64,000 bases of DNA from Candidatus Bipolaricaulota bacterium (GTDB taxonomy: Bacteria > Bipolaricaulota > Bipolaricaulia > RBG-16-55-9 > DRXL01): contig CALLJK010000014.1 in assembly GCA_938091745.1 (NCBI GenBank), positions 16,331 to 80,330 of the forward strand, read 5' to 3'. The notes under the pieces were generated by a model. That model did not search any database and was not told the origin of the DNA. It saw nothing but the letters and a program-made list of their open reading frames with translations. Positions within the stretch are counted from its first letter, which is position 1, and each line of letters starts with the position of its first letter. Positions 6,750-58,541 of the stretch are shown one piece after another. The position numbers and the translations under genes were made by a program.

Positions 6750-7465
6750 TCCTCCGCACAGAAGGGTTGGTCAAGAGCTATGGAGGACGGCGGGTCGTCG
6801 ACGGCGTCTCTCTCCACATTGAGAGTGGCACCGTTGTCGGACTATTGGGAGCCAACGGTGCGGGCAAGACCACCACGTTCTATATGATCACTGGGCTGAT
6901 CGCTCACGAAGCTGGGGAGATCTTTCTCGACGAAACCCCTATTGGCCGCTGGCCCTTCTATGCCCGTGCTCGTCTCGGGATTCACTATCTGCCCCAAGAG
7001 CCTTCAGTCTTTCGCAAGCTCAGCGCTCTAGAGAATCTCTTGCTCGTCTTAGAGCAGTGGGAATTCAAGCCCAAAGAGCGTGAGCGGCGCGCCCTGCAGC
7101 TCTTGCAGAAGCTGGGCATCGTGCATCTGGCGCGGCAGCGCGTCGATACGCTTTCAGCGGGGGAGCGCCGGCGCGTCGAGATCGCGCGGGCCTTAGCGAC
7201 CTCCCCGAAATTTCTCTTGCTCGATGAACCCTTCTCCGGGATAGATCCCATCTCTGTCGCTGATATCCAGAAGATCATACGCGCGCTCGCCGCCGACGGG
7301 ATTGGCGTCGTCGTGACGGACCACAACGTGCGTGAGACCCTGCGCGTCACTGACTATGCGTATCTCTTGAATGAGGGCAAGCTCTTGCTGAGTGGACGCC
7401 CAGAAGAGATCGCGGCGCATCCCCTGGCGCGACAGTATTATCTTGGTGAAGACTTTCAGCTATGA
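6746..7465 (+). CDS. lptB: LPS export ABC transporter ATP-binding protein LptB
   Basis: 239 aa. Walker A GANGAGKTTTFYMITG, signature LSAGERRRVEIARAL, Walker B LLLDEPFSGIDP. Size and position after lptC are typical of LptB. Confidence 0.8.
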   Translation: MILRTEGLVKSYGGRRVVDGVSLHIESGTVVGLLGANGAGKTTTFYMITGLIAHEAGEIFLDETPIGRWPFYARARLGIHYLPQEPSVFRKLSALENLLLVLEQWEFKPKERERRALQLLQKLGIVHLARQRVDTLSAGERRRVEIARALATSPKFLLLDEPFSGIDPISVADIQKIIRALAADGIGVVVTDHNVRETLRVTDYAYLLNEGKLLLSGRPEEIAAHPLARQYYLGEDFQL

Positions 7466-8314
7466 CCCCGATGACGGTGCTACAGCTGGCTTGCGCACGT
7501 AAAGTCTCTTCATCACGATGAACGCGCCAAAGATCACGACGAGAATGACGCTGATGACTTGGGCAGCTCGTAATAGATCGGGGACGAGCCAGAGCGCATC
7601 TGCCCGCAGAAACTCCATCCAAAACCTCAAGACCGAATAGAGCACAATATAGAGCGATGCGATGAACCCATCTTGAAAGTTTTTCGTGCGCAGCCACATG
7701 AGCAGACCAAAGATTATGAGATCGCCGACCATCTCGTAGAGCATCGTAGGGTGAGTAGGGATATCGCCCCATTGCTGATACCCTGGAGTGCCCTCTTTAT
7801 ACACAACCCCGACCCAGTCGAGCCATGAAGGCCAGGTCGGTCCCAGGGGCACCCCATAGGCGTCGCCGTTCATAAAGTTTCCGAAGCGCCCCAGGGCTTG
7901 TCCCAAGATCATGCTTGGCGCCACAGCGTCGGCAAACTGCCACAGGGGGACTTTCTTCCATTTCGAGTAGACCCAGAGCATGAGCAGCCCCGCCAAAATG
8001 CCCCCGTGAATAGCCAGCCCACCTTCCCAGATCGCAATAATATTTATAAACGTCTTCAGGGCATCGCCGGGAACATAGAAATTCGACCACTGAAAAGCGA
8101 CATAATAGAGCCGCGCCCCGATGATCGCCACGGGCACGGTGATCAAGACGAAGTCTAAAATATCATCAAGGGTCAGGGGTAAGCCCTTGCGTGCGGCCTC
8201 GCGGCGCGTCAGAAAGATCCCCACGACAATGGCAATCACGTACATCAACCCGTAATAGCGTATCTGAATAGTGCTTCCCCACGGCATCGGGATCTCTATC
8301 AAGATCGGATTCAT
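7460..8314 (-). CDS. lgt: Prolipoprotein diacylglyceryl transferase
   Basis: Conserved Lgt motifs: YGLMYVIAIVVG, ARLYYV, and the Lgt signature GxxxGRxGNFxNGxxxG in GQALGRFGNFMNGDAYG. Start set at the internal ATG (MNPILIEIP); the track ORF extends to 8395. Confidence 0.85.
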   Translation of the reverse strand: MNPILIEIPMPWGSTIQIRYYGLMYVIAIVVGIFLTRREAARKGLPLTLDDILDFVLITVPVAIIGARLYYVAFQWSNFYVPGDALKTFINIIAIWEGGLAIHGGILAGLLMLWVYSKWKKVPLWQFADAVAPSMILGQALGRFGNFMNGDAYGVPLGPTWPSWLDWVGVVYKEGTPGYQQWGDIPTHPTMLYEMVGDLIIFGLLMWLRTKNFQDGFIASLYIVLYSVLRFWMEFLRADALWLVPDLLRAAQVISVILVVIFGAFIVMKRLYVRKPAVAPSSGS

Positions 8315-8425
8315 TGGTTCTATCCCCCTCGTATCTGTTAAGTACGAGCGATTGTACGCGATAGGCTGACCCGGCGTCAAGCAGGACTTGAGCATGGACG
8401 GCCTGACCCGTAAGATAGAGGCGTC

Positions 8426-9304
8426 ATGATGCCTGATCTGGGGATTATGGGATTGGCTTTGGGGGCAGGGATTGTGGCGTTCTTTAATCCTTGCGGGTTT
8501 GCTCTACTTCCGTCGTACGTCGCGCATTACTTGGGGAGCCGTTCAAGCCCTTCAGACCGCTCAGAGCGGTGGTGGGAGCGCCTATGGTACGGCTTGGCGC
8601 TCGGCAGTGCCGTCAGTGCCGGGTTCTTTACAGTCTTTCTCGCTTTGGGCATTGTGATCTCTCTTGTGGGAACAGCTATTGGTTTTTACTTTCCCTGGGC
8701 CGTTGGGCTTCTTGGGCTTGGCTTAATGGCTCTAGGAGTCTTCACGCTTCTAGGGCGCCAGCTGGCTCTTTCGCTGCTCTTCCAAGCCCGCTCAGATCGT
8801 CGGAGTGTCTTCTTCTATTATCTTTATGGGATCGGCTATGCGATAGCATCATGCGGCTGCACGTTCCCCATCTTTATGATCTATGTCGTCGGGCCGACCT
8901 TGACAGCGGGCCTCCTCAGCGGGCTGGTGAACTTTCTCGCCTACGCGTCGGGGATGACGTTGATGATGCTGTTGCTCTCTCTCACTATAGCGTACTCCAA
9001 GGGCAGTCTCGACCGCCGTCTGCCCCTCAGGCACGCCCTCATCGGGGTGAGCATCCCCATTGGCATCGTGCTGGTGTTGGTGTGGGCGCAGCCGCAGCTT
9101 GCTTCGAGCTGGAGCGCAGCATTCTCTGGAACTAACCGCATCTTCATCAGCGTCTTCGCCATCGCGCTTCTCGCTCTGCTCTTCTTTCAGCTGCGGCGCT
9201 GGGAGCGGGCCACGCACTGGCTCAATGGGCTTCTGCTTGTTGCGGCCGGGCTGTATCTCATCTACTATCAACTGTTCGAGTATGGGCTGCTCGACTTCAG
9301 ATAA
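8426..9304 (+). CDS. ccdA: Cytochrome c-type biogenesis / thiol-disulfide transporter CcdA (DsbD family) membrane protein
   Basis: 292 aa polytopic membrane protein with the DsbD-family Cys motif FFNPCGFALLP in TM1 and a second Cys pair (SCGCTFP). Confidence 0.6.
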   Translation: MMPDLGIMGLALGAGIVAFFNPCGFALLPSYVAHYLGSRSSPSDRSERWWERLWYGLALGSAVSAGFFTVFLALGIVISLVGTAIGFYFPWAVGLLGLGLMALGVFTLLGRQLALSLLFQARSDRRSVFFYYLYGIGYAIASCGCTFPIFMIYVVGPTLTAGLLSGLVNFLAYASGMTLMMLLLSLTIAYSKGSLDRRLPLRHALIGVSIPIGIVLVLVWAQPQLASSWSAAFSGTNRIFISVFAIALLALLFFQLRRWERATHWLNGLLLVAAGLYLIYYQLFEYGLLDFR

Positions 9305-9307: not shown

Positions 9308-10864
9308 ATGATGCTTCGGGCGATCTTAGCTCTGCTTGCGGCTCTCTTGGCGTTGCTCAGTATGCCCGGCTATCTCTTTGGCGGGCTGATCTTTATCGCG
9401 CTCGTGCCGCTCTTCTTTGCTCTTGAGAAGAGCGTGCCACGTCAGGGGTTCTGGCTAGGATATTTGTGCGGGTTTGTGTTCTTTGCTCTGCTCTTATATT
9501 GGATCTACACGCTCTGGGACTGGGCTGGGGGGTTCACCGTCTTTGGCCATCTGATGCTGGCAGGGGTGTTGGCGTTGTGGTGGGGGCTGTGGGGCACAAG
9601 TGTTTGTCTCATGCAAAGGCGATTCCCTCACGCCCTAACGATTCCTGCTGTTTGGGTCTTCTTGGAATATTTGCGCTCACTGACGAAGTTCGGGTTTACG
9701 TGGGGTTTTTTGAGCGATGCCCTCTCTCAGTATCCCTCGCTGATTCAGATTGCTTCGCTGACAGGGACGTGGGGGATTTCGTTGCTCATCGTTCTTGTGA
9801 ATCTTCTTCTCTATCGCGCGCTGCGCCAGCGGCGTCTCTTCTATGGGGTATTCGCTATTGGGCTGATTGCGCTCGATTGGGGCTGGGGAGTCTATCAGCT
9901 GAGTCTCTCTCAGCCGCGGGGAGCGCCGGTGCGTATAGCCGTGGTGCACTCGAACGTCCTGCAGCGCGCCCGCAGCGATCCAGAACAGCTCTCATATATT
10001 CAGAATCTCTATCTCTCTCAGCTAGAGCACCTGCGCGCTGAAGAAGTTGATCTCGTGATTCTGCCGGAGTCGATTGTGCCGGCATATGTGCTCCGGCAGC
10101 CAGACCTTCTTCAGCCCTATCAAGAGCACGCGCAGCGCCTTGGTGCCGCGCTCATCGTAGGGACGATTGACTATCGCGACGGCAAGCTCTTCAATACAGC
10201 GGCTCTCATCGCGCCAGATGGGGAGATCGCTGATCTCTATGACAAAGTTCAGCTTGTGCCCTTCAGCACCGAGTATTTTCCGTTGATCGGGCTGCTGCGC
10301 CGTATAGAGAATCTGATCGGACCGTTACCGCTGGGGGCGCTCACGCCGGGGGAAAGGTTCCATCCTTTGGCCCTCACCCCTGACCCCTCTCCCGTGGCTC
10401 ACCCACGGGAGAGGGGTGGCATCAACCGGGGTGAGGGCCTTCGCCTCGCTACCCCGATCTGCTTCGAGTCGATCTTCTCTCACATCAGTCGAGCATTTGT
10501 CAGACATGGCGCCCAAGCCATAGCGATCATTACCAACGACGCCTGGTTCAAGGGCTCCAAAGCTCTCGAGCAACATTTTGCTAAAGCCGTCTTTCGCGCT
10601 GTCGAGACCGGACGCTACACCGCGCAAGCGTCCAACGGCGGTATTTCCGGGGTGATTGATCCCTACGGGAGAATTCTTACAGCAACGCGCTCTGAAAGAG
10701 AGCAGATCCTGCAGGAGACGATCTTCCTGCAGGATCACGCGACGCTCTACGTGCAGCTCGGAGATTGGGTCGTCTATCTGTCAGGGTTAGTTTTAGCGGG
10801 CATCATATTCGTTCCTGTGCTTGTGAGCTTCGTCACCGCGCCCGTCAAGAGAGAGACTTTATAG
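9308..10864 (+). CDS. lnt: Apolipoprotein N-acyltransferase (carries an in-frame palindromic-repeat insertion)
   Basis: 518 aa. N-terminal polytopic membrane domain plus C-terminal CN-hydrolase domain (RIAVVHSNV..., ...PICFESIF with catalytic Cys). Sits directly downstream of lgt/ccdA. Confidence 0.8.
   Translation: MMLRAILALLAALLALLSMPGYLFGGLIFIALVPLFFALEKSVPRQGFWLGYLCGFVFFALLLYWIYTLWDWAGGFTVFGHLMLAGVLALWWGLWGTSVCLMQRRFPHALTIPAVWVFLEYLRSLTKFGFTWGFLSDALSQYPSLIQIASLTGTWGISLLIVLVNLLLYRALRQRRLFYGVFAIGLIALDWGWGVYQLSLSQPRGAPVRIAVVHSNVLQRARSDPEQLSYIQNLYLSQLEHLRAEEVDLVILPESIVPAYVLRQPDLLQPYQEHAQRLGAALIVGTIDYRDGKLFNTAALIAPDGEIADLYDKVQLVPFSTEYFPLIGLLRRIENLIGPLPLGALTPGERFHPLALTPDPSPVAHPRERGGINRGEGLRLATPICFESIFSHISRAFVRHGAQAIAIITNDAWFKGSKALEQHFAKAVFRAVETGRYTAQASNGGISGVIDPYGRILTATRSEREQILQETIFLQDHATLYVQLGDWVVYLSGLVLAGIIFVPVLVSFVTAPVKRETL
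10369..10439. repeat. GC-rich nested palindromic repeat element copy A, inserted in-frame within lnt
   Basis: Outer inverted repeat GGCCCTCACCCC...GGGGTGAGGGCC encloses inner inverted repeat CCCCTCTCCCGT...ACGGGAGAGGGG. Same family as the copies at 19002-19114 and 54555-54602. Confidence 0.8.
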
Positions 10865-12021
10865 ATCTGATACGTCCCGTCTCTATCAGAGACGAACGCG
10901 ATCTCGGTACCGTTAGGGAGCCAGAAGGGATCGAACTCATTTGAAGTTGCGAGATTTGCCGTGCTCGACGACGCAAATGTATTGAGACTGACGATGCTTG
11001 AGCCGTCGGCGTTCATCACGAAGATATCTAAAGTGCCCGTCTGGTCGGACGTGAACGCGATTTTTGTCCCATCGGGTGACCAGCTTGGCGGCGAGGGGAG
11101 GTTAGTGATGGGCGAGAGCGCGCCATCATTGAAGCTCGGACGATTCGTGAGATTCGTCATCCCCGTGCCATCCGCGTTGACCTTCCAAATGTCAAGAGCG
11201 TTTGGGGCAGTGTCGTTAGTCGTCACGAAGATTAAGAGATTGGGGTTTGTGGGCGACCAGCGTGGGGCGAAGGCGTGCTTGGGGGTGACGGTCGTCAAAC
11301 GAGACTGATTGGTCCCGTCGGCGTTCATCGTATAGATTTCGTAGTTGCCGTCGCGATTGGTAGCAAACGCGATCTTCGTAGCGTCAGGCGACCATGTCGG
11401 CTGAATCTCCCAGCTGCCGGTCTGCTGGGTGAGGTTAGTTTGGAAAGTGCCGTCGGGGAGCATCTTGAAGATATCGAAGTCCCCAAATTGTGGAGGGTTG
11501 CCGAAGATGAGCGGAGCGCGGGCGAAGGCCACGTACTGGCGGCCGTTAGGGCTGAGAGTAGGCCAGGCGTCCATGCCTTGGAGAAAAGTGATCTGGGTCT
11601 GATTCGTACCATCAGCGTTCATGCGAAAGATTTGCGACATACCGCTACGATCGGATGCGAAGAAGATGCTCGTCTCCAGCACAGTGATAAAGAGCGCAAA
11701 CGAACTCTTCAGCCCACTGCTGTCGGTGACGGTCAGGACGACTGTGTAGAGACCCGGGGTAGTGTACGTATGGGTGGCTTTGACGCCGGTAGCGTCTGGA
11801 GTGCCGTCGTTGTCGAAGTCCCACTGGTACTGAGCGATAGTGCCGTCGGGGTCGCTTGAGCCAGAAGCGTCGAAGCTGACGGTGAGCGGGGCCTCACCGC
11901 TTGTCGGGGTGGCTGTAAAGAGAGCGAGCGGGGCTTGGGCCAGGGTGCAACCGCTCAAAGAGATCAAGAGCGCAATGAGCAGCGAGATTCGTTCAGGGCG
12001 TCGCGTCACGGATCGCATCAT
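10774..12021 (-). CDS. Lipoprotein with PKD domain and TolB-like (PD40) beta-propeller repeats
   Basis: Signal peptide with lipobox LSGC. PKD signature (TVSFDASGSSDPDGTIAQYQWDFDNDGTPD) followed by repeated ...ADGTNQ...SPDG... PD40-type blades. Confidence 0.65.
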   Translation of the reverse strand: MMRSVTRRPERISLLIALLISLSGCTLAQAPLALFTATPTSGEAPLTVSFDASGSSDPDGTIAQYQWDFDNDGTPDATGVKATHTYTTPGLYTVVLTVTDSSGLKSSFALFITVLETSIFFASDRSGMSQIFRMNADGTNQTQITFLQGMDAWPTLSPNGRQYVAFARAPLIFGNPPQFGDFDIFKMLPDGTFQTNLTQQTGSWEIQPTWSPDATKIAFATNRDGNYEIYTMNADGTNQSRLTTVTPKHAFAPRWSPTNPNLLIFVTTNDTAPNALDIWKVNADGTGMTNLTNRPSFNDGALSPITNLPSPPSWSPDGTKIAFTSDQTGTLDIFVMNADGSSIVSLNTFASSSTANLATSNEFDPFWLPNGTEIAFVSDRDGTYQIYKVSLLTGAVTKLTSTGTNMMPAKTNPDR

Positions 12022-14813: not shown

Positions 14814-17800
14814 ATGCGAAGACATCAATATCTCTTTTGGGTTCTCTGTGGAATAGTCTTAGTGTTGCTCGGCGCGGTGGGGCTGACTCAGGAGCCCTCG
14901 GATCCCAAGAGCGTTGCCCGGTTGGAGCACGATCCGAAGATTGACAGCGTGCTCGAGCAGATCTTTAAGCTCGCAGAGCAAGGGCAAGCCCAAGCAGCGG
15001 CCCAGGCGGCCTCGCAGTTTCGCGTCCCCGTCTCGGGCAACACGGCTATTGTGATCTTTCAAGTTCCTGAGAGCGTCAGCCGTGACCCTGCTGCTCAGGA
15101 TCTGCTGAAAAAACAAGTCGCGCTCGGAGGAGGACAAGTCATCGCCACATCGAAATATGCCTGGAAGGTCCAGGTCCCTATGAACTTAGGGCGGTTGCGT
15201 GCTTCTTTGGCAGCAGCTGGCAGCGTAGTCCAGTTCGTACGACCTCCGCTCGTCCCCCAAACTCTCGTGGTCAGCGAAGGGGTGGCCCTCACAGGGGCAT
15301 CGAATTATCACTCGATGGGCTTTCGCGGGCAGGGCGTCAAGATCGCCGTGATCGATCTGGGCTTTGCTGGGTTATCTGCTGCCCAGAGTCGTGGCGAACT
15401 CCCCGGTGGCATCCAGACGTTTGACTACACGGGTACGGGAATTGAGTCTGGAACGAATCACGGCACGGCTGTCGCGGAGATCATCTACGACATGGCTCCG
15501 CAAGCCCAGCTAATCTTGATGAAAGTCGGCGACGAAGTCGACTTAGAGAACGCCAAAGAAGAAGCGATTCGTCAGGGCGCGAAGATCATCAATCACTCTG
15601 TAGGTTGGTTCAACACGAACTTCTATGACGGCACGGGAATAGTGAATAATATCGTCGCGGACGCACGCAGCCGCGGAGTGCTCTGGGTCAACGCGGCAGG
15701 CAACTACGCGCGTCGCCACTGGCAAGGGACGTTCCGCGATACAAACTTCAACAAATGGCACGAGTTCTCCGGCGGCGACGAGTCTCTTTCTATCACCGTG
15801 AACGCTGGGGATCAGATCGGGGTCTTCCTCACGTGGAACGACTGGCCCCAATCAGCAAACGATTATGATCTGTATCTGTTCAACAATAACGGGACCCAAG
15901 TTGCAGCATCGCAACGCATTCAGTCGGGCACCGAACCCCCCATTGAGAGTCTCTTCTATCAGTCATTCATCCCGGGGACATTTCATATCCAGATCAAGGC
16001 TGACGGCAACCCCGCCCCGCGGACCTTCTCGCTCTTCAGCCTCAATCACGATCTCGAATACGCTGTCCCGTCCAATAGTATTATTGCTCCAGGGGACTCG
16101 CCCAATGCTCTAACCGTCGGCGCAGTGAACCGTCAAAACTGGACGACCGGCCCCATCGCTCCCTATAGCTCTCAAGGGCCAACGAATGCTGGGCTATCAA
16201 AGCCCGACATCGTCGGTCCGGATCGCGTCTCGACGTTCACGTACACGGAATTCCCTGGCACGTCCGCGGCAGCGCCGCACGTCGCCGGAGCTGCGGCGCT
16301 CCTGCTCTCCGAAAACCCAAATCTGACTGCAGGTCAGCTTGAAGCCCGCTTGAAGAGCGATGCAATCCCCATGGGGTCACCGTTGCAGTTTGGCTCTGGG
16401 CGGCTCAATCTCGCACAATCCAGCCCGCCTCCGGGCCAGCCCGATCTCACCGTGAGCGGCCTGACGTCTAGCCCATCTAATCCCCGCGTTGGGGATTTCG
16501 TCACCGTGAGCGGGATCGTGAGCAACATTGGGAATGCTGCTGCCGGGCCGTTCGTGATCGAGATTCGCGATAGTGGCGGCACCGACCGACGCACCGTTGC
16601 GGGCCTCAATGCCGGAGGCTCAACGAGCTTTTCGTTCACGCGTCGAGTCAATCAAACCACTGAGACGTTTGTCGTCGTCGCGGACGCGACGAACCAGGTG
16701 AGCGAATCGAACGAGACCAATAACTCTGCTGAGCTGCGCGTGACCGCGACGCAGCCCACGCTCAAGCCCGACTTGGCTATCGCCAGCACAGACTGGTCGC
16801 CGCGCACGCTCACCGTTGGGCAGAACGTCACGCTCTCTATCGTTGTGCGTAACCAAGGGCAAGCGAACGCCGGGCCGTTCATAGTAGAGATTCGCGACAG
16901 CGCTGGGACGGATCGTCAGACTCTGCCAGGCCTTGCCGTCGGCAGCACCGCCCCAGTCAGCTTCACCCGCAGAGTCAACAATACGACCGAGTTCTTCACG
17001 ATCACTGTCGATGCGACCAATCAAGTAGACGAACTCGACGAGACGAATAACTCCGTGCAGATTCGTGTAGATGCTCAGCCACAGGCGCCGCGCAAGCCCG
17101 ATCTTACGATTTCTGGAGTTGATTGGACACCGCGGGTGCCACGCCTGGGAGAGAACGTGAACTTCACAGTTGTCGTGCGCAACCAGGGCGACGGCAATGC
17201 TGGGCCGTTCCTCGTCGAGATCCGCGATAGCGCTGGCCAAGACCGACGAGCAGTCTCAGGGCTGAGTGCAGCAAGCTCTGTCTCGCTCTCGTTCACCCGA
17301 AGGCAGAATAACGCGACGGAGATCTTCACTATTACTGTTGACATCACCAATCAAGTAGACGAGTCGAACGAGACCAATAATTCGACGCAAGTGCGCATTG
17401 AAGCGCTAGCCGAGACGCGCTTGCCCGATCTGACTATAGACTCGCTCGATTACTCCCCACGCGACCCGTCAGTAGGCAGTACGCTCACGCTCACAGCTCT
17501 CGTGCGTAATATCGGGAACGCCGACGCTGGCCCGTTTGTCGTCGAATTGCAAGACAGCGTCGGAACGACCCGACAGACGCTTGCTGGGCTGCGTGCCGGG
17601 GCTTCGGTGCGAGTAGACTTCTCAAGGCGGCTCAACAGCTCTTCGGAGACGTTCACCGTCACGGCTGACGCCCTGCGCCAAGTCGCAGAGTCCAACGAGA
17701 CCAACAATAGTCGTCAGATCACGGTGCGAGCCTCGACGCCCAGCCAACTCTCGATCTCTATAAGCACCGACAAGACGAGCTATCGCATCGGAGAGAGATT

Positions 17801-18989
17801 GCAGATCTTCTTGCGCATCGGAGCGCAAGCGTATGTCTATGTCTTTGATATTGACCCAGCGGGTCGCGTGTCACAGGTCTTCCCCAACTCGTTCTCGCGC
17901 CAGAATCTCTTGAACGCTGGGACGTACACGCTGCCCGACGGGCCATATACTCTTGCGATCAGCGGCCCTGAGGGCACTGAGTATCTGCACGCTGTCGCGA
18001 TCACACAGTCTGTGAATCTGGGGCTTGATGGGCTGCGTAATACAGCGTGGCTCAATCCCGAAACGTTCAAAGCTGAGCTAGCTCGGCGCATTCAAAGCGT
18101 CGCGCCATCGGCGACGTGGACGAGCGCCTTCACGAGCTTTCAGGTCGGCACAACTGCGCCCCCGCAAAATCGCGCTCCAACAGCGTGCTTCAGCTTCAGC
18201 CCAACAAATCCCCTTGTCAATCAGCCAGTCACATTCGACGCGTCGTGCTCGACCGACCCTGATGGGCGCATTGTGCGATATGACTGGGATTTCGACAGCG
18301 ATGGACGTGTCGATGCCCAGGGCGTGCGCGTGGCGTTCGCGTTCTCCCAAGCGCGAACATACACGGTACTGCTGAGAGTGACAGACGACCAAGGGCTGAC
18401 TGGCTCTCTCACTAAGAACGTCACGGTACAGGCAACAATCACGCCGCCCACGCCGACGCCACGTCCGTACATCCCCCTTGGCGCTGGAGGACTCTTCATC
18501 ATGGGGACAGACAAGCTCTATCTGATGGTCCAAGGGGCGACGGGCTGGAACAGCGACAGACCCTATCAAATCTCGCTCGCTGTGAACGGGACGATTGACG
18601 GCGTCGGGGTGCAGACGGAAGGCGCTGCGATGGCTCAGCCCGTCCCACAGATCACTGGGCAGGTCACACAAATCACACTGAACGGCTCTGTGCGGAGCAA
18701 CGGGCGCATCACTTACACAATTCAGTTGAGTGACACCGTCTCGGCTGCCCGGATCGAGCTGTTGCTCGACGTCAATGGCGACGGCACCCCTGAGCGAACT
18801 CAGACCAACGCGATCTTCATCTTCATTACAGGCCTTGGGCGTGTTCCCGGGTTCTATCTGCCATTCAGCAATCCGTTCATTATTAAGAACGCGAGAAACG
18901 AGTTCCTCCTGCCCTTTGAGGAGTGGACGCGGTTGTGCGTGCCTGCGCAACCCACAGGCTTTGAGACCTCGAGTTGTTGGCCAGGATGA
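14814..18989 (+). CDS. Secreted subtilisin-like serine protease (S8) with 4 tandem CARDB domains, a DUF4384-like domain and a PKD domain
   Basis: Signal/TM at N-terminus. S8 catalytic triad contexts: Asp AVIDLGF, His NHGTAVAEI, Ser GTSAAAPHVAGAAALL. Four ~108-aa repeats of (K/Q/L)PDL...NETNNS.... PKD motif ...FDASCSTDPDGRIVRYDWDFDSDG.... Confidence 0.85.
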   Translation: MRRHQYLFWVLCGIVLVLLGAVGLTQEPSDPKSVARLEHDPKIDSVLEQIFKLAEQGQAQAAAQAASQFRVPVSGNTAIVIFQVPESVSRDPAAQDLLKKQVALGGGQVIATSKYAWKVQVPMNLGRLRASLAAAGSVVQFVRPPLVPQTLVVSEGVALTGASNYHSMGFRGQGVKIAVIDLGFAGLSAAQSRGELPGGIQTFDYTGTGIESGTNHGTAVAEIIYDMAPQAQLILMKVGDEVDLENAKEEAIRQGAKIINHSVGWFNTNFYDGTGIVNNIVADARSRGVLWVNAAGNYARRHWQGTFRDTNFNKWHEFSGGDESLSITVNAGDQIGVFLTWNDWPQSANDYDLYLFNNNGTQVAASQRIQSGTEPPIESLFYQSFIPGTFHIQIKADGNPAPRTFSLFSLNHDLEYAVPSNSIIAPGDSPNALTVGAVNRQNWTTGPIAPYSSQGPTNAGLSKPDIVGPDRVSTFTYTEFPGTSAAAPHVAGAAALLLSENPNLTAGQLEARLKSDAIPMGSPLQFGSGRLNLAQSSPPPGQPDLTVSGLTSSPSNPRVGDFVTVSGIVSNIGNAAAGPFVIEIRDSGGTDRRTVAGLNAGGSTSFSFTRRVNQTTETFVVVADATNQVSESNETNNSAELRVTATQPTLKPDLAIASTDWSPRTLTVGQNVTLSIVVRNQGQANAGPFIVEIRDSAGTDRQTLPGLAVGSTAPVSFTRRVNNTTEFFTITVDATNQVDELDETNNSVQIRVDAQPQAPRKPDLTISGVDWTPRVPRLGENVNFTVVVRNQGDGNAGPFLVEIRDSAGQDRRAVSGLSAASSVSLSFTRRQNNATEIFTITVDITNQVDESNETNNSTQVRIEALAETRLPDLTIDSLDYSPRDPSVGSTLTLTALVRNIGNADAGPFVVELQDSVGTTRQTLAGLRAGASVRVDFSRRLNSSSETFTVTADALRQVAESNETNNSRQITVRASTPSQLSISISTDKTSYRIGERLQIFLRIGAQAYVYVFDIDPAGRVSQVFPNSFSRQNLLNAGTYTLPDGPYTLAISGPEGTEYLHAVAITQSVNLGLDGLRNTAWLNPETFKAELARRIQSVAPSATWTSAFTSFQVGTTAPPQNRAPTACFSFSPTNPLVNQPVTFDASCSTDPDGRIVRYDWDFDSDGRVDAQGVRVAFAFSQARTYTVLLRVTDDQGLTGSLTKNVTVQATITPPTPTPRPYIPLGAGGLFIMGTDKLYLMVQGATGWNSDRPYQISLAVNGTIDGVGVQTEGAAMAQPVPQITGQVTQITLNGSVRSNGRITYTIQLSDTVSAARIELLLDVNGDGTPERTQTNAIFIFITGLGRVPGFYLPFSNPFIIKNARNEFLLPFEEWTRLCVPAQPTGFETSSCWPG
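16437..17730 (+). repeat. Four tandem ~320-bp coding repeats (CARDB domains) within the S8 protease gene
   Basis: Repeat units begin at about 16437, 16758, 17079 and 17409. They are conserved at protein level (PDLT..., AGPF.VEIRDS.G..R, NETNNS) with partial DNA identity. Confidence 0.7.
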
Positions 18990-19001
18990 GAGAATGAGTG
19001 A

Positions 19002-19114
19002 GGCCCTCACCCCCGACCCCTCTTACCCTCACCCCTTCGAGTCCCCTCTCCCCTCCGAGGGAGAGGGGAAGGGGTGAGGGGGGCAAGAGGGGTGGCGCAG
19101 CCGGGGTGAGGGCC
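19002..19114. repeat. GC-rich nested palindromic repeat element copy B (intergenic between convergent S8 protease and ligA; probable bidirectional terminator)
   Basis: GGCCCTCACCCCC...GGGGTGAGGGCC outer inverted repeat with inner CCCCTCTCCCCTCCGAGGGAGAGGGG hairpin and a second nested ACCCTCACCCC/GGGGTGAGGGGG pair. Ends 3 nt from the ligA stop. Confidence 0.8.
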
Positions 19115-19116
19115 TT

Positions 19117-21295
<2,179 letters not shown>

Positions 21296-43596: not shown

Positions 43597-45006
43597 TCAG
43601 ATTCGTTCGGCTTTGATTTCTAAGATCCGGTGCGTCCGAGGCGTCACACGATACGATTCGTTGACGGCCTGGCCGACGATCCATATTACTGTATTCTCAT
43701 CACAAATCAAGGGGATGGCATCGCGGGCCTCGCGGGGGATTTTTCTATCAACGAAAAAGTCTTGTAATTTCTTTGTGCCCTCCTTCAGGGAGATGCAATC
43801 CCCAGGACGGCGATTGCGCACGACTAAGCTGCCGCAAATCTTGTCAGCGTCGAGGAGGACCAAAGACCTAACCCCCAACCCCTTCCCTGAAAGGGAAGGG
43901 GCTCTCCCCTCCCCGTGCCGGGGAGGGGCCGGGGGAGAGGTCAGCTTCATCTGCAATCTCCAGCCGATCTCTGGGATGACCGTCTCGCCGGGCACAGTGA
44001 GTAAATACTCAAAGCGCTTTGGGGCCGGAGCCGGACGCGTCGTGATAATCAATTGAGCATGGCGGCGCAGCACCCTCACGCCGGCGGGCAGATGGAGTTC
44101 GCCCGTGCCGTGACGGGCAACCCACCCTAAGACAGCTTCGATGTGATCAGCTTCCAGCTCGCCCTGGAGCGCATAGACAGCTTGACGCAGCACGAGCGCC
44201 TGCAGATACTCAGAGAGTTTCAAGAACTTCTTCAAATCAAGCGCAAGCTCGTATGCCTTTTGCTCGCAGAGAAGCTCTTTTAACGCTTGGTCGGCTTCAC
44301 GCTCCAGATGCTGGGCAGCCTGGCCGAACAGTCGCGCCGTCCGCCCTAATGATTGAAGCAGATTTGGGTTGTACTCTTTCAAAATGGGGATCAGCTCGTG
44401 GCGGATCTTATTGCGCACGATCTTGGTGTCATAATTCGTTGGGTCTTCACGCCAACGGAGTTTGTGAACTTTGGCATAGGCTTCGATCTGCTCGCGGGTG
44501 CACTCGATCAATGGGCGAATATACTGACAGTGCTCACTAGAGCGTACTGGGGGAATCCCAGCAAGCCCTTCGAGCCCAGAGCCGCGCACGAGTCTCATCA
44601 GGAGCGTTTCAGCTTGATCGTTGAGCGTGTGCCCCAATGCGATTTTATTGAATTTATGAGCGTGAGCTGTCTTCTCGAGAAACTGATAGCGCAGCTGCCG
44701 TGCCGCGACTTCGAGCGAGAGCTTGTTCGCTTTGGCATAGGCGGGCACGTCAGCACGCTCTGTGTAAAACTGCAGTTTCAGCGAAGAAGCGAGCTTTTTG
44801 ACAAACTCAGCATCTTGAGCTGACTCTGGGCGAATGCCGTGATCGAAGTGCGCTACAGCGAGCGTGAGCTTCAGCTCTCTTTTGAGTTCTTTGAGCACAT
44901 GGAGCAAGACGACCGAGTCCACGCCGCCGGAGACGGCCACGAGCACGCGATCTCTGTTTTCGAGCATGGCGTAGCGCGAGATAGTCTTGCGGACTTGGTT
45001 GAGCAT
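43597..45006 (-). CDS. tilS: tRNA(Ile)-lysidine synthetase (carries an in-frame palindromic-repeat insertion near the C-terminal domain)
   Basis: PP-loop VLVAVSGGVDSVVLLHVL. C-terminal TilS domain (VVRNRRPGDCISLKEGTKKLQDFFVDRKIP). Confidence 0.8.
   Translation of the reverse strand: MLNQVRKTISRYAMLENRDRVLVAVSGGVDSVVLLHVLKELKRELKLTLAVAHFDHGIRPESAQDAEFVKKLASSLKLQFYTERADVPAYAKANKLSLEVAARQLRYQFLEKTAHAHKFNKIALGHTLNDQAETLLMRLVRGSGLEGLAGIPPVRSSEHCQYIRPLIECTREQIEAYAKVHKLRWREDPTNYDTKIVRNKIRHELIPILKEYNPNLLQSLGRTARLFGQAAQHLEREADQALKELLCEQKAYELALDLKKFLKLSEYLQALVLRQAVYALQGELEADHIEAVLGWVARHGTGELHLPAGVRVLRRHAQLIITTRPAPAPKRFEYLLTVPGETVIPEIGWRLQMKLTSPPAPPRHGEGRAPSLSGKGLGVRSLVLLDADKICGSLVVRNRRPGDCISLKEGTKKLQDFFVDRKIPREARDAIPLICDENTVIWIVGQAVNESYRVTPRTHRILEIKAERI
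43871..43940. repeat. GC-rich nested palindromic repeat element copy D (variant subfamily), in-frame within tilS
   Basis: CCCCTTCCCTGAAAGGGAAGGGG hairpin followed by CTCTCCCCTCCCCGTGCCGGGGAGGGGCCGGGGGAGAG nested palindrome. Encodes SPPAPPRHGEGRAPSLSGKGLGV on the tilS strand. Confidence 0.7.
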
Positions 45007-47840: not shown

Positions 47841-50018
47841 TCACTCTCTTTTAGGCTTTATATGTGCCAGGCGCAGCGCGTTGCCCGTCACGGCCAGCGA
47901 CGCGCCCATGTCGCCCACAAGCACAGCTAATACTAACGTCACATAGCCGGGGAAGACCCCTAAACCCAGACTGAGCTTGGTCAAGATCGAGAAGAAGATA
48001 TTTTGTTGAATAACGCGCCGCGCCCGACGGCTCAGCTCAATGAGATAGGGCAGCTTGCTCAAATCGTCGCTCATGAGCGCGACGTGCGCCGTCTCCAGAG
48101 CTGCGTCTGTGCCGATCGCGCCCATGGCGATCCCGACAGTAGAAGCTGCTAAGGCCGGGGCGTCGTTGACCCCGTCGCCGACCATTGCGACTTTGCCGTA
48201 TTGCCGTAAGAGCTTCTGAATCTCTGAGACCTTCCCGTCAGGCAGCACCCCAGCATGATAGTGCGCGATGCCCAACTGGTGCGCGACAGCTTGAGCTGTG
48301 CCCTCATTGTCACCCGTGATCATCACGACTTCCAGACCTAATTCTCGCAGGCGCTGGATCGTCGTGGGCGCTTCGGGGCGGATTTTGTCAGCTATGGCGA
48401 TCAGTCCCATAAGTTTTTCTGCTAGGCCCACGCCGACAACTGTCTTGGCTTGAGATTCTAAGCGTACAGCTTCGCTGTGGGAAGAGTTGGGGAAGAGCTG
48501 GAGCTTGCCGACACGATACTCTCTCCCATCAAGGTGGGCCTGCACACCCTGACCCGTCAGAGAAACGAAATCTTGCGCGTCAGGGAGCGCTTGCACAGGC
48601 GCGCTCTGCTCATAATAGCGCACGATCGCGCGCGCGATGGGGTGCTGGCTCTTGCTCTCTAGAGCTGCCGCGATGCGCACTATCTCTTCGGGTGAGGAGC
48701 CATCGAGCGCGATCACATCGGTGACAGCAAGCTCCCCGGTGGTGAGCGTCCCCGTCTTGTCGAAGACAATAGTTTTGATCTGCCCAAGCTCTTCTACGTA
48801 GGCGCCGCCCTTGATGAGCACGCCGTGGCGAGCAGCACTGGTTATCGCTGAAATGATCGAGACCGGGGTCGAGATGAGCAACGCACACGGGCAAGCGATA
48901 ACTAGCAGCGCGAGCGCGCGGGAGAACCATTCTGCGAACGGGGCACCAAAGAGCAGCGAGGGAATGGTCGCAACACCCAACGCTACAGCTACAACGCTTG
49001 GTGTGTAGTACTTGGCAAAACGGTCAACGAACTTCTCCACAGGCGCTCGCTGCGCTTCGGCTTCTTCGACCAAGTGAATGATCTTAGCGAGCGTCGTGTC
49101 TTTGGCACGTTTGGTGACTCGAATCTCTAGATAGCCCTCGTGGTTGATCGTGCCGGCAGAGACCGCATCGCCCGGCTGCTTCTCGACGGGCACCGACTCG
49201 CCAGTGATCGGCGCTTGATTGACCGAAGAACTGCCCGACAGCACGAGGCCGTCGAGGGCGATGCGCTCGCCGGGCTTCACCACAAGAGTCTCGCCAAGCT
49301 CGATCTGATCGAGAGGGAGCAGAAGCTCTTGGCCGTTGCGGCGCACGCGGGCTTCGCTGGGGGCGAGCTTCATCAGCTCGCGCAATGAGCGTCGTGCGCG
49401 CTCGACGGAAAACTCTTCAAGAAGCTCGGCGAGCGCAAAGAGAAACGCCAGGCTCGCCGCCTCGACGTATTCTCCAATAAGAATGGCCCCGACAATGGCG
49501 AGGCTCATCAGAAAGTTAATGCCCAGCGAGAACGTCTTTAATGCGTGAAGGCCCCGACGCGCAAAATGATATGCCCCGAAGAAGACCGCAGCTAAATACA
49601 GCATCGTCGAGAGCGTCAGTGTGCGCTCCCACAAGACCATCAGCGTCGGATCGAGCTTAAAGACTGAAAGCGCTAAGCCAAGAGCGAGCAGCACCCCAGA
49701 GACCCCCGTGAAGAGTGCTTCGCGGCGTCTCCACAGGGGCTTGGGCGTACTCGCTTCTTCATGGGCGCGGCGCGTCGTGTAACCGATGCGCCCTATATGC
49801 TCGATGAGCTGTGCGCGATCTAGCGTATGAGGGCGATAGCGCACGCGCAGCGTGCTTGTAGAAAAATTCACTTTGGCTTCGGTCACGCCGTGCAGACGAC
49901 TGATGGACTGCTCTAATTCGCTTGCGCAGCCGGCGCAGTGCATCCCTTCGACGCTAAACTCTTCAGTGTTCTCATCCATATGCTGATCACAGTTAAAGAG
50001 CGCATGCCTCAATTTCAA
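47841..50018 (-). CDS. Heavy-metal translocating P1B-type ATPase (Cd/Zn/Pb-type, CadA/ZntA-like)
   Basis: N-terminal HMA (GMHCAGCA), CPC motif in TM6 (ACPCALLISTP), DKTGT phosphorylation site, GDGVNDAP hinge. Confidence 0.85.
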   Translation of the reverse strand: MKLRHALFNCDQHMDENTEEFSVEGMHCAGCASELEQSISRLHGVTEAKVNFSTSTLRVRYRPHTLDRAQLIEHIGRIGYTTRRAHEEASTPKPLWRRREALFTGVSGVLLALGLALSVFKLDPTLMVLWERTLTLSTMLYLAAVFFGAYHFARRGLHALKTFSLGINFLMSLAIVGAILIGEYVEAASLAFLFALAELLEEFSVERARRSLRELMKLAPSEARVRRNGQELLLPLDQIELGETLVVKPGERIALDGLVLSGSSSVNQAPITGESVPVEKQPGDAVSAGTINHEGYLEIRVTKRAKDTTLAKIIHLVEEAEAQRAPVEKFVDRFAKYYTPSVVAVALGVATIPSLLFGAPFAEWFSRALALLVIACPCALLISTPVSIISAITSAARHGVLIKGGAYVEELGQIKTIVFDKTGTLTTGELAVTDVIALDGSSPEEIVRIAAALESKSQHPIARAIVRYYEQSAPVQALPDAQDFVSLTGQGVQAHLDGREYRVGKLQLFPNSSHSEAVRLESQAKTVVGVGLAEKLMGLIAIADKIRPEAPTTIQRLRELGLEVVMITGDNEGTAQAVAHQLGIAHYHAGVLPDGKVSEIQKLLRQYGKVAMVGDGVNDAPALAASTVGIAMGAIGTDAALETAHVALMSDDLSKLPYLIELSRRARRVIQQNIFFSILTKLSLGLGVFPGYVTLVLAVLVGDMGASLAVTGNALRLAHIKPKRE

Positions 50019-54530: not shown

Positions 54531-54554
54531 AGTGATCTCCTTGTATTATGCTCG

Positions 54555-54602
54555 CCCCTCTCCCGTAGATTGCCTACGGGAGAGGGGCACGGGGTGAGGG
54601 CC
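54555..54602. repeat. GC-rich palindromic repeat element copy C (truncated; intergenic inside an operon)
   Basis: CCCCTCTCCCGTAG-ATTGC-CTACGGGAGAGGGG hairpin followed by CACGGGGTGAGGGCC. Shares its inner and right-outer modules with copies A and B; the left outer arm is absent. Confidence 0.75.
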
Positions 54603-54604
54603 TC

Positions 54605-55198
54605 TTATGGTTTCCGTTCGATGCTTAGTAGTTCTGTCAGCGCGACGAGCATCCACTTGTCGCCCTCTTTCTTCTCGATGCGCAAGAGCGGCGGATACGG
54701 CAAAATCTTGCGCGACTCCAGATCGCTGATGGCGACAATCGCCCGTTGGTCCTCAAACTTCGGGTGGGTGTAGACCCCCTTCACGGCCTTAACGCCGCCG
54801 ATCACGATTTCTTCACTCGTGACGAGCTTTGCGCCCTCAGGCAACAGAATTTCTTTGTTGGGCTGGACTTCGCGCGTGTCGAGCGCGCTGATCGGTGTCA
54901 TGTCCAGATACCCCTTGGGGACGTGGGCAAACCCGTGAGAGAAGACCATCACTTGCAGCTGATCCCGCTCTGCGAGCAGCTCGAACGTCTCGGTGACCCG
55001 AAACTTTGAGCCCTCAGGCACGATCTTCAGTGTGAGCGTTGCCGGGCTGGGATCGTTCTCCATATTCGTCAGACGATAGACGACTGTGAGCGTTCCCCCA
55101 CTGTAGGGACCGATGCCGAAGACCTGGGCCAATGCCCAGCCGCCACCAATGAATGTGAGTAACGTCAAAGCAGCAAGTGCGACGTGTAGCCTCTTCAT
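54605..55198 (-). CDS. Hypothetical secreted/periplasmic protein (possible LolA-like partner of the downstream ABC pair)
   Basis: Start set at the internal ATG with RBS AGGAGG and signal peptide MKRLHVALAALTLLTFIGGGWALA; the track ORF extends to 55258. No diagnostic motifs. Confidence 0.45.
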   Translation of the reverse strand: MKRLHVALAALTLLTFIGGGWALAQVFGIGPYSGGTLTVVYRLTNMENDPSPATLTLKIVPEGSKFRVTETFELLAERDQLQVMVFSHGFAHVPKGYLDMTPISALDTREVQPNKEILLPEGAKLVTSEEIVIGGVKAVKGVYTHPKFEDQRAIVAISDLESRKILPYPPLLRIEKKEGDKWMLVALTELLSIERKP

Positions 55199-55639: not shown

Positions 55640-55972
55640 TCAAAAATTCTTCAGATACTTAAAAACTTCCATCAGCTCGTCGATCTTCTCCTCGCCCTTG
55701 CCTGATTGAATCGCTTCGGTAAGACAGGTCTGCATATGCCCTTTAGTCAGCATTTGCGCGATCTGGGAGAGCGACGCCTGCACCGCTGCGATCTGTTTTA
55801 AGATCTCGACGCAATACTCTTCGTTTTCGATCATCGTCTCGATGCCCTCGACGTGGCCGCGCACCGTGCGGATGCGCCGCAACAGATCGCGCTTCATCTG
55901 CGGCAGATGCTGGAGCCCGCCGCGCTTGTGAGTCTCTGCATGTGTTGGCATAGCTTGCACTCCTCTCTTCAA
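55640..55972 (-). CDS. csoR: CsoR/RcnR-family metal-sensing transcriptional repressor
   Basis: [36 protein letters not shown] carries the W-X-Y-Z Cys/His signature of CsoR. The ATG overlaps the copA stop (ATGA). The true start may be an internal ATG. Confidence 0.75.
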
Positions 55973-58458
55973 ACAGCTATGAGCGGCGCACGGAATCTCC
56001 GCAGGCGCAGCGCATTTGAGACAACGCTCACGCTCGAAAGCCCCATCGCCCCAGCAGCCAGGATCGGGTTGAGCAGCCCCAACGCTGCTACGGGGATGAG
56101 CACCGTGTTATAGATAAACGCCCAGAAGAGATTCTGCCAAATGTTTCTCACCGTCGCGCGGCTGAGGGCGATCGCCGTCACGACCCCGCGCAGATCCCCG
56201 CCGACTAAAGTAATGTCTGAAGCTTCCATCGCGACGTCGGTGCCCGTGCCAATAGCAATCCCGACATTAGCCTGCGCGAGAGCGGGCGCATCGTTGATCC
56301 CGTCGCCGACCATCGCCACGCGCTTCCCTTGGGCTTGCAGCTTTCTCACTATGTCGGCTTTTTCATGGGGCAAGATCTCAGCGAAGACCTGCTCGATCCC
56401 GACTTGCCGAGCGATCGCTTCGGCAGTCTTTTTGTTATCCCCCGTGATCATCACGACTTCTAACCCTAAAGCCTTCAGGGCAGCGACGGCTTCACGCGCA
56501 CCCTCTTTCACAGTATCAGCGATAGCAAGCACGCCAAGTGCTTTGCCGTCTTGGGCGACGAAGACCGGCGTCTTGCCCTGGGCGGAGAAACGCTCAGCGT
56601 GCTCGAGCAGCCCGTCGAGCGCGACTTTTTCGTCGCGCATCAGTTTTAAATTGCCTACGAGCACCCGATGGCCGTTGAGGCTCGCGCGGATACCGTGTCC
56701 GGGGACAGCAGCAAACTCGCGGGCTTCTGCGAGCGCGAGATTCTTCTCATGCGCATACTTCACGATCGCTTCGCCCAAAGGGTGCTCAGACCCTCTCTCG
56801 ACAGAGGCCGCCAGCTGCACGAGCTGCTCTTCAGAGACTCCTGATAGGGTCACTATGTCTGTGATTTCGGGGCGGCCCTTGGTCAGCGTGCCTGTCTTAT
56901 CTAAGACAATGGTCGTGAGCTTATGCGCCGTCTCGAGGGCATCCCCACCCCGAATTAAGATGCCGTGCTCGGCGCCCTTGCCCGTGCCGACCATGATGCT
57001 CGTGGGCGTCGCTAGCCCCAGCGCGCACGGGCACGCGACTATCAAGACCGCGACAAAGTTCAGAAGAGCTTTGGTCAGTGCTGGCTGCGGCCCAAAGAAG
57101 TACCAGCCCACAAACGTCACAATCGCGATGAGAATCACAGCGGGGACGAAGTAGCTCGCGATCACATCAACGAGCTTAGCAATGGGAGGCTTGGTGCTCT
57201 GAGCCTCTTCGACAAGCTTGATGATCTGTGCGAGAGCTGTTTCGCTCCCGACTTTTGTTGCTCGGAACGCGAACGAGCCGGTCTTGTTGATCGTTGCGCC
57301 GATGACTTCATCACCAGGACGCTTTTCGACGGGGAGCGACTCCCCTGTGATCATGGACTCATCGACTGCTGAAACGCCCTCGATGACGATGCCGTCCACG
57401 GGGATCTTCTCGCCAGGACGAACTACAACAATATCGCCGACTTGGACGTCTTCGATGGGGATGTCTCGCTCTTGTCCATCGCGGATGACGCGAGCGGTCT
57501 TGGCTTGTAAGCCGATGAGTTTCTTGATCGCTTCAGAGGTGCGCCCCTTGGCGCGGGCTTCGAGCAATCGTCCCAAGAGAATCAGCGTGATGATCGCGGC
57601 TGACGTGTCAAAATACAAGTCCATGTGCCCGTGCGTGCTGAAGAGCGGCAACAGCGCGCTGTACCCGTAAGCTGCCGTCGTGCCCACGGCAATAAGCGTG
57701 TTCATATCTGTCGTCTTGTTGCGCAGAGCGGCCCATGTGCCGCGATAGAACTGCCAGCCTGCCCAAAACTGCACCGGCGTCGCCAAGAGCAACTGTAAGA
57801 GATAATTGAGCTGATCGGGGATGGGCAGCTTCAGCCCCAGCATCCCTGGGTACATCAAGAGAAAGATCGCTATCGTGAGCGCCGCAGAGACGATGAGCTT
57901 GCGGCGCAGCTGTGCTTCGTAATCTTCGTGATGCTGTGCGTGCGCGTCGGGCTTCTCTTCGGGAACGTCATAGCCAATGCGGCGCACGGCCTCTTTCAGT
58001 TTCTCAACTGTGACTTGGTTTGCCGCGACGCGCACGGTCGCTTTTTCAGCGGCAAGATTGACGCTGGCGTCCAAAACACCGGGGACGCTCCTGAGGGCCT
58101 TTTCGACTTTGGCGACGCAGCTGGCACAGCTCATGCCTGAGATGGGGAGGGTGAGGAGACCTACCCCTCTGGCCCCCTCCCCTCCCTCTTTAGGGGAGGG
58201 GCTGGGGGAGAGGTTCTTACGCAAGCGTCGCTCGTCTTCTTGCGCGTCTTCGCTGAGTTCCTCGGCCTCGTAGCCAGCATCTGTGACAGCTTGCGTTAAG
58301 CTCGCTATTGAGACGCCCTCGCTGTGCTCAACTTCAGCACGGCCGCGCTCCAGCGAGACGTTTACTCTGTGAACGCCCGCGACGCCTTGCAAAGCTTGCG
58401 TCACAGACTTGACGCAGTGCTGGCAGCTCATCCCTTTGACTTTTAGGATCGTCTTCAT
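55969..58458 (-). CDS. copA: Copper-translocating P1B-type ATPase with two N-terminal HMA domains (carries an in-frame palindromic-repeat insertion between the HMA domains)
   Basis: Two GMSC(Q/A)(H/S)C HMA motifs, CPC ([11 protein letters not shown]), [13 protein letters not shown]. Start likely the internal ATG ([15 protein letters not shown]); the track ORF extends to 58506. Confidence 0.85.
58147..58213. repeat. GC-rich nested palindromic repeat element copy E (variant subfamily), in-frame in the copA inter-HMA linker
   Basis: CCTCTGGCCCCCTCCCCTCCCT-CTTT-AGGGGAGGGGCTGGGGGAGAGG imperfect palindrome. Encodes [22 protein letters not shown] on the copA strand. Confidence 0.7.
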
Positions 58459-58541
58459 AGTGATTCTAATCCCCCCCACGAGGGGTGGGTTAAAGTATAG
58501 CGCCAACTCCCTCGGATGTCAAGCCCCCGCCATGTGTGCCC

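Follow-up and report, generated by a model that had tools for sequence, protein, structure and literature searches.

A GC-rich palindromic repeat of 71 nt lying inside lnt, the gene for apolipoprotein N-acyltransferase, in a Candidatus Bipolaricaulota bacterium is, by its sequence, a member of the BoxC/PIT/TM(ECO) repeat family in its two-sided (perfect palindrome) form. The element occupies positions 10369 to 10439 of a 64,000-nt stretch of DNA (the window, to whose positions all coordinates refer) and is predicted to be translated in frame within Lnt. We consider it most likely to be a passenger repeat that landed in a β-hairpin turn permissive for insertion; it would be translated as a disordered loop, and purifying selection on Lnt would keep it in frame.

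The element, designated A-type, is a nested palindrome with the sequence GGCCCTCACCCC-TGA-CCCCTCTCCCGTGG-CTCAC-CCACGGGAGAGGGG-TGGCATCAACC-GGGGTGAGGGCC, beginning and ending with GGCC. An earlier note on this DNA had described a palindrome at these positions, and both of its arm pairs proved to be 100% complementary, the outer arms over 12 nt (10369-10380 and 10428-10439) and the inner arms over 15 nt (10383-10397 and 10403-10417). The predicted RNA fold of a 91-nt stretch containing the element had an energy of -61.9 kcal/mol against -36.5 ± 3.2 kcal/mol for 200 dinucleotide shuffles, none of which folded as well (z -7.9), and the corresponding DNA fold gave a z-score of -7.95. A relaxed TM pattern matched the element on both strands. 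On the minus strand (10371-10415) the blocks are CCCTCTCCC (C-stem), a hairpin top, GGGAGAGGGG (G-stem 1), the 3-nt loop TCA and GGGGTGAGGG (G-stem 2), the element as a whole reading CCCCTCTCCC-(hairpin top)-GGGAGAGGGG-TCA-GGGGTGAGGGCC on this strand, and the same interval is also a canonical four-tract G-quadruplex motif. The plus-strand match (10385-10437) has the central hairpin in common with the first and a long second loop of 11-13 nt, TGGCATCAACC. The composition of the blocks is compatible with a triplex built from G*G:C, A*A:T and T*A:T triads (PMC4666352). Three of the six reading frames of the element are free of stop codons, including two of the three on the plus strand, and the predicted peptide spanning 10369-10439 includes LALTPDPSPVAHPR. 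An Rfam search with 401 nt (E ≤10) returned only sub-threshold miRNA-like hairpins, the best with 30 bits against a gathering score of 77 bits; no family reached its threshold and these matches were set aside as hairpin look-alikes. No promoter or terminator was found at the element in a scan of 9900-10950.

BoxC/PIT repeats of E. coli and other bacteria were reportedly described by Bachellier et al. in the 1990s and by Hoyne et al. in 2000. The E. coli repeat, named BoxC, later PIT and then TM(ECO), has the arrangement CCCTCNCCC-N3-6-GGGNGAGGG-N3-GGGNGAGGG and is present in K-12 as 23 copies, all intergenic, with no known transposase or phage association (Holder et al. 2015, PMC4666352). In the lnt element the three blocks follow one another in this order, CCCTCNCCC, GGGNGAGGG and GGGNGAGGG, as C-stem, complementary G-stem and second G-stem. 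Its 9-mers (CCCTCTCCC, GGGAGAGGG and GGGTGAGGG) are identical to those of the E. coli K-12 BoxC in the hrpB-mrcB spacer at 164.5 kb, the sequence of which was read by accession for this comparison, and the core 9-mers likewise agree exactly with those of the 23 TMECO copies that PMC4666352 gives in its Table 1. The 9-mers of the lnt copy are spaced 13 nt and 5 nt apart; with 10-nt stems the second loop becomes TCA (3 nt), and the first spacer is an extended hairpin stem with a true loop of 5 nt. The block order and, in the 10-nt register, the 3-nt second loop are thus those of BoxC/TM(ECO), and further likenesses are the dispersed, multi-copy occurrence as singles or inverted pairs, the absence of a visible target-site duplication and decay through small deletions in which the hairpin is kept. 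The differences are that all 23 K-12 copies are intergenic whereas three of the five copies in these 64 kb are intragenic and predicted to be translated, that the hairpin top is longer here by 4 to 5 pairs (13 nt between 9-mers), that the hairpin of the lnt copy has a GGGGTGAGGG/CCCTCACCCC block to its left and to its right, which makes the 71-nt perfect palindrome, and that the host phylum is uncultivated and is not named in the cited parts of PMC4666352 and PMC5100583. A blastn search of the single copy at 54550-54606 against 5,426 E. coli genomes gave no match, probably owing to the low-complexity filter and the shortness of the query.

The host gene is intact. On the evidence of the ORF list, Pfam and solved Lnt structures, lnt extends from 9308 to 10864 on the plus strand and encodes 518 aa, and the ORF passes through the element without a stop, as the earlier note had stated. 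The protein has an LNT_N domain (PF20154, residues 11-167, 2.6e-30) followed by a CN_hydrolase domain (PF00795, residues 243-476, 6.9e-25) with a Glu-Lys-Cys triad, and it matches the solved structures of P. aeruginosa and E. coli Lnt (E 5.6e-35). The triad E254/K313/C385 is invariant in an alignment of 34 orthologs (A1). Cys385, the catalytic residue, corresponds to E. coli C387 by structure-chain alignment (8q2p/5n6m) and by its invariant column in A1. Its codon lies at 10460-10462 on the plus strand, about 20 nt beyond the end of the element, which places the insertion within the CN-hydrolase domain and upstream of the catalytic cysteine, where it had been located before. An antisense ORF (10325-10738, 137 aa) overlapping lnt on the opposite strand was taken to be a by-product of the GC-rich sequence.

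The gain in protein length is smaller than the approximately 24 aa initially proposed. The interval from P353-L354 to A381 comprises 28 residues in the window protein versus a 9-residue turn (L-x-S-S-x-G-x-L-A) in most orthologs, including all those below ~60% identity, and relative to this turn Lnt has thus grown by a net 19 aa (57 nt). Relative to the ortholog L001 the extra 57 nt correspond to 10375-10431 on the plus strand (19 codons, T357-G375, ±1 nt), as placed by a second alignment (A2), the site DNA and the residue numbering. The element itself encodes about 23 residues, and at the site some 6 ancestral codons have been replaced by 25. E. coli and P. aeruginosa Lnt are gapped exactly at the insert, between E. 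coli P373 and N378. The ortholog alignment that had been proposed as a check of lineage specificity therefore shows distant and most close orthologs keeping the short turn, with no homologous segment in the distant ones, and the gene is not disrupted. No direct repeat indicative of a target-site duplication was seen in the site DNA or in A2, either flanking the lnt copy or in a filled and empty pair of closely related orthologs (L201 and L202, below).

An AlphaFold2 model built on the ortholog alignment (mean predicted local distance difference test, pLDDT, 85; predicted TM-score, pTM, 0.87) was matched by Foldseek to the E. coli and P. aeruginosa Lnt structures with TM-scores of 0.76-0.81. 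In this model residues 362-374 form a coil with pLDDT <50 between strands 354-356 and 378-381, the latter leading to C385, and the insert fits an extension of a β-hairpin turn loop, in line with the loop-like peptide foreseen from the sequence. In the general nitrilase fold, this turn should sit at the strand end away from the active site. The element-derived loop of 19 residues, rich in Pro, Gly and Arg, is probably disordered, and we infer that it has no function at the protein level.

The history of the site was examined in the DNA of 14 GTDB genomes and four further contigs, the closest public proteins belonging to Candidatus Bipolaricaulota (Acetothermia) metagenome-assembled genomes; the identical window Lnt protein is on record from two contigs. 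The ortholog L013, with 83% protein identity to the window Lnt, carries the same 71-nt element at the same place. A degenerate copy in a different reading frame was present in L002 (77% protein identity) and a decayed remnant, GGTCCTCAC...GGATGAGGGGGTGAGA, in L005 (72% protein identity in the best tblastn segment). L001 (78% protein identity) is without exactly the window segment 10375-10431 and retains GGCCCT joined to TGAGGGCC. The more distant L012 (65% protein identity) has a compound sister-type element that closely matches the window copy at 43870-43941 and is preceded by an apparent A-type left end. L201 and L202, whose lnt genes are 95% identical in nucleotide sequence, differ at the site, L201 having a short TM-like variant (L201:2256-2375) and L202 the empty site with the ancestral turn (L202:4042-4125), and yet another nested polypyrimidine/polypurine palindrome was found in the further lineage L204. 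The loop thus carries different TM-type elements in at least four lineages, and the site states fall in at least four separate places on a neighbour-joining tree. These comparisons support the segment being an insertion restricted to part of the lineage.

The pair formed by the window and L013 bears on constraint. Compared with the window, the stem top GTGG/CCAC has become GTGA/TCAC in L013, a compensatory pair change, while the loop is shorter by 1 nt and the spacer longer by 1 nt, with total length and flanks unchanged. Because these compensated -1/+1 indels shift the frame, the middle of the peptide differs, VAHPRERGGINRG in the window versus VITHGRGVPAGQG in L013; hairpin and reading frame are retained and the peptide is not. 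The earlier note had taken the in-frame state to imply selection for frame preservation. This claim is weaker than stated there. The in-frame state itself mostly reflects survivorship, since three of the six frames are stop-free and a gene that is needed can carry an insertion only if the frame is maintained. The compensated frameshift is the better evidence of continued constraint.

Because the 14 nt retained in L001 are the element termini, which are also carried by copies at unrelated loci, this allele may be read as an interior deletion; an alternative is a short palindrome that served as the target. TM(ECO) has been tied to local sequence instability including small deletions that leave the hairpin (PMC4666352), and the decay states of L001, L002 and L005 match those reported deletions.

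The lnt element is one of exactly five polypyrimidine/polypurine hairpin loci in the window. The scan that located them found 18 qualifying arm pairs in the real sequence versus 0-1 in each of 20 shuffled windows. The relaxed TM pattern gave 7 matches at three of the loci (lnt, 19004-19080 and 54556-54600) versus 0 expected, and GGGGTGAGGGC was matched 8 times versus 1.3 expected. Three of the five copies lie inside genes (lnt, tilS and a copper ATPase gene) with Pfam domains on both sides; all except the copy at 54553-54603 are listed without strand. An A-type sister of the lnt copy, from the same subfamily, is an intergenic composite at 19000-19117 that separates two convergent ORFs (14814-18989, plus strand, and 19117-21222, minus strand). 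The lnt copy and the copy at 19002 agree at 64 of 68 aligned nt, the identity covering the non-palindromic spacer TGGC(A/G)...CC and 3 nt beyond the palindrome. A second TM element is nested in the hairpin of this composite, an arrangement suggestive of insertion of one element into the hairpin tip of another. In the neighbouring ORF 14814-18989 (1391 aa), direct repeats at 16689-17708 with a spacing of 327-330 nt probably encode tandem protein domains of ~109 aa.

The second intergenic copy, a single TM element on the plus strand at 54553-54603 (CCCCTCTCCC-GTAGATTGCCTAC-GGGAGAGGGG-CAC-GGGGTGAGGGCC), is flanked by two minus-strand ORFs. The two remaining copies are of the B-type (sister-type). 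A TM pair at 43870-43941 lies in frame in tilS (ORF 43597-45006, minus strand), between the TilS substrate-binding domain (residues 256-318) and TilS_C (394-460), giving the in-frame peptide ...KLTSPPAPPRHGEGRAPSLSGKGLGVRSLVLL...; each strand carries a TM, the second loops being TTG and CCG, and the pair resembles the inverted pairs of type A and type B known from E. coli. The copy at 58160-58214 lies in frame in a copper P-type ATPase gene (ORF 55969-58506, minus strand), in the linker between two N-terminal HMA domains. Two segments 8128 nt apart, 48117-48341 and 56245-56469, are 70-75% identical, which suggests a second, paralogous P-type ATPase gene near that of the copper ATPase.

Beyond the window, the exact core GCCCTCACCCC-NNN-CCCCTCT (18 nt) was present in at least 120 metagenome contigs with GC of 0.38-0.75 from many environments, so that with its five loci in 64 kb the repeat is a dispersed, multi-copy family with a conserved core. 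Among the matches listed, 75 perfect-arm copies had 65 distinct loops, mostly of 3-8 nt, the commonest second loop was CCG, which is the E. coli 'type B' loop, and 29 of 130 were spanned by stop-free frames with at least 80 codons on each side. Pfam domains were found around or across the element in all 14 copies tested, and at least 11% of the sampled metagenome copies therefore lie inside verified genes. The hosts verified in this way include HsdM methylase, pyruvate dehydrogenase E1, GHMP kinase, a phage-type terminase, PurL, a PfaA-like polyketide synthase, ABC transporters, a DEAD/Lhr-like helicase, an Eco57I-type restriction-modification enzyme, a glycosyltransferase and redoxins.

Two of the metagenome contigs deserve separate mention. 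In L140 (Ga0206354_11692281), the plus-strand ORF from 2601 encodes a terminase large subunit with Terminase_6N and Terminase_6C domains, between which lies an in-frame TM peptide (ALTPRPSPASGRGE); the TM family is therefore also found in phage or prophage genes. In L107 (Ga0194060_10005322), a minus-strand ORF of 1948 aa encodes a fragment of a PfaA-like polyketide/polyunsaturated fatty acid synthase whose inter-domain linkers hold many TM-derived segments, tandem and inverted, with three exact core matches.

The reading that we favor, a passenger BoxC/TM repeat in lnt, entails the following sequence of events. A close relative of the intergenic copy at 19002-19117 would have entered lnt at the codons of the β-hairpin turn, just before the strand carrying the catalytic Cys, replacing ~6 codons. 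Since the 57 nt gained are divisible by three and the element is stop-free in two of its three plus-strand frames, the gene could stay open; with three of all six frames open, the main barriers to survival inside a gene should be length modulo 3 and tolerance of the site. The element would now be translated, with Lnt tolerating the loop extension, and copies in sister lineages would later have decayed or lost their interior by hairpin-mediated deletion. Recurrence at the same loop would be due at least partly to survivorship, few sites tolerating insertion. The elements may also prefer palindromes or remnants that are already in place, as the nesting at 19002 and the A-type remnant next to the sister-type element of L012 suggest. 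As a working guess, copying may proceed by structure-mediated template switching or by ectopic gene conversion on single-stranded DNA.

Several observations weigh against this account or limit its reach. The strict published TMECO pattern (9-nt stems separated by a loop 1 of 3-6 nt and a loop 2 of exactly 3 nt) had 0 matches in the window, because the loops of the window copies are longer. The lnt event was no clean insertion, flanking codons having been replaced and a target-site duplication not being seen, and import of the whole patch by homologous recombination from another lineage is not separable from insertion in situ. Between L201 and L202 there are 10-11 mismatches per 60 nt beside the site versus 0-5 elsewhere in the gene, which fits either patch import by recombination or repeat-associated local instability. 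The neighbour-joining tree lacks support values, and its sisters P0003 and P0004 disagree, one having a footprint and the other an ancestral-looking turn; how many gains and losses took place, and in which order, is therefore uncertain. The placement of the loop at the surface and away from the active site is a prediction from secondary structure, pLDDT and the known nitrilase fold, and translation of the insert is predicted from the intact ORF only. Finally, retention of the hairpin through a compensatory change could reflect a function at the nucleic-acid level rather than neutrality.

This last point leads to the most serious of the other explanations, namely that the element is kept in lnt as a nucleic acid. 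Its mRNA hairpin of about -62 kcal/mol, or a triplex or G-quadruplex in the template DNA, might halt translation or transcription briefly ahead of synthesis of the catalytic strand, affect mRNA stability, or act as a local instability or mutation switch. The compensatory change between the window and L013, which preserves the hairpin while the peptide changes, speaks for such a role, as do the extreme fold z-scores, the canonical G-quadruplex and triplex motif of the minus strand and the raised divergence beside the L201/L202 site. The E. coli family forms a stable purine-motif intrastrand triplex in vitro and is associated with local sequence variability (PMC4666352), and the same repeats, described as only intergenic, have been proposed to act as a G-quadruplex-hairpin-duplex switch (Kaplan et al. 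2016, PMC5100583). However, in vivo experiments published for E. coli gave no sign of promoter, terminator or polymerase-blocking activity or of a stable triplex (PMC4666352), and the lnt element itself has neither a terminator- or promoter-like site nor an Rfam family above threshold. Moreover, most orthologs do without the element and others have unrelated variants or decayed copies, and the symmetry of a palindrome can be maintained by intrastrand templated repair without selection. We therefore regard a nucleic-acid role in lnt as unlikely.

An adaptive gain for Lnt, in which the Pro/Gly-rich peptide would give the enzyme of this lineage, say, a lid-like loop or a new surface for contacts, might be suspected from the persistence of the insert across the divergence of window and L013 (83% protein identity) and from extension of the same loop in several lineages. 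It is nevertheless a very improbable explanation: the middle of the peptide differs between window and L013, where the frame differs, the inserts of other lineages are unrelated in sequence and length, the insert has pLDDT <50 in the model, and the same element family occurs in unrelated proteins and in intergenic DNA. Least credible of all, to the point of being negligible, is that the segment is ancestral to the Lnt of this group and was lost elsewhere, or that it is an assembly artefact or the mark of a pseudogene. Losses do occur, as L001 resembles an interior deletion, but basal and distant orthologs have the homologous 9-residue turn without a palindrome, and the repeat of which the segment is one copy recurs at other places in the window. 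The independent assembly L013 also has the element, the identical protein comes from two contigs, and the ORF and catalytic triad are intact. These three readings were rejected on the strength of the ortholog turn, the L013 copy and the intact ORF and triad.

The repeat in lnt is an instance of the phenomenon known from Rickettsia palindromic elements (RPEs) in its behaviour and a BoxC/PIT/TM repeat in its sequence. RPEs are about 100-150 nt long, longer than the lnt element. They are AT-richer and confined to Rickettsia, whereas the TM family spans contigs of GC 0.38-0.75 from many environments. The likeness to RPEs drawn in the earlier note fits as a description of behaviour, RPEs being small palindromic repeats that lie in frame within conserved genes (Ogata et al. 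2000, as cited in PMC3184786): the lnt element is likewise an in-frame, lineage-specific palindromic insertion at a loop of a conserved, needed gene, compatible with an ORF in several frames and apparently tolerated rather than functional. Its host, Candidatus Bipolaricaulota, and its match to BoxC/TM set it apart, and kinship with RPEs is not expected.

[quoted passage not shown] The lnt element resembles these in being a non-autonomous structured repeat embedded in an ORF, to which it adds a peptide. MITEs, however, have terminal inverted repeats, target-site duplications and a plausible parent insertion sequence; the outer arms of the lnt element could pass as terminal inverted repeats, but a direct repeat was not seen, and filled and empty lnt sites differ by replaced flanking codons. 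The repetitive extragenic palindromes (REPs) and REPINs, which are mobilised by RAYT transposases (PMC3116915, PMC3733652), are similarly short, GC-rich, multi-copy palindromes occurring as singlets and inverted doublets, but they are extragenic by definition, and their GTAG or CGTC tag is not at the end of the lnt element.

With regard to the surroundings of lnt, an ORF on the minus strand upstream of it (7460-8395) has an Lgt-like motif (GRFGNFMNGDAYG), and the plus-strand ORF directly before it (8426-9304) has a counterpart with a DsbD_TM match in related contigs. These contigs keep the order DsbD_TM-like gene, lnt, a convergent gene for a PKD/PD40 beta-propeller protein and an extracytoplasmic function (ECF) sigma factor gene. 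The Lnt ortholog P0015 has an 8-residue insertion, 'AICRGQFANRPYYRKF', in a loop of the membrane domain (A1 columns ~128-140). This peptide resembles what we take to be translations of a different class of GC-rich hairpin repeat, and the loop may be a second permissive site of lnt.

That small palindromic repeats can colonise genes in frame has been clear since the Rickettsia RPEs were described, and the event in lnt is not novel in principle. The novelty lies in which repeat is involved, namely BoxC/PIT/TM, whose function and spread have been open for ~30 years and which has been described as strictly intergenic in E. coli. In the searchable literature we found no report in which the BoxC/TM family is intragenic and translated, or in which a single enzyme loop is used repeatedly across an uncultivated phylum; a search on the peptide signatures (GEGPGVRA and others) returned no relevant paper, and one on small dispersed repeats of cyanobacteria gave nothing specific to the TM motif. 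The signatures ALTPxPSP...GRGE, GEGPGVRA and GRGAGGEG mark repeat-derived segments in protein databases, where they can cause errors in alignment, in domain calling and in structure prediction. The filled, differently filled, decayed and footprint alleles of lnt form a natural before-and-after set for the movement and decay of the element, also suited to testing whether such elements raise local mutation rates. A more far-reaching and doubtful reading, which we put forward tentatively, is that BoxC/TM is a transposase-free, self-propagating family that extends across many phyla, routinely becomes coding and possibly re-enters palindromes or its own remnants. If so, this would explain the at least four colonisations of one lnt loop and the copies nested in hairpins, the lnt site would be a natural filled/empty/footprint series from which to read the mechanism of insertion, and the family would supply bacterial proteins generally with Pro/Gly/Arg-rich loops.

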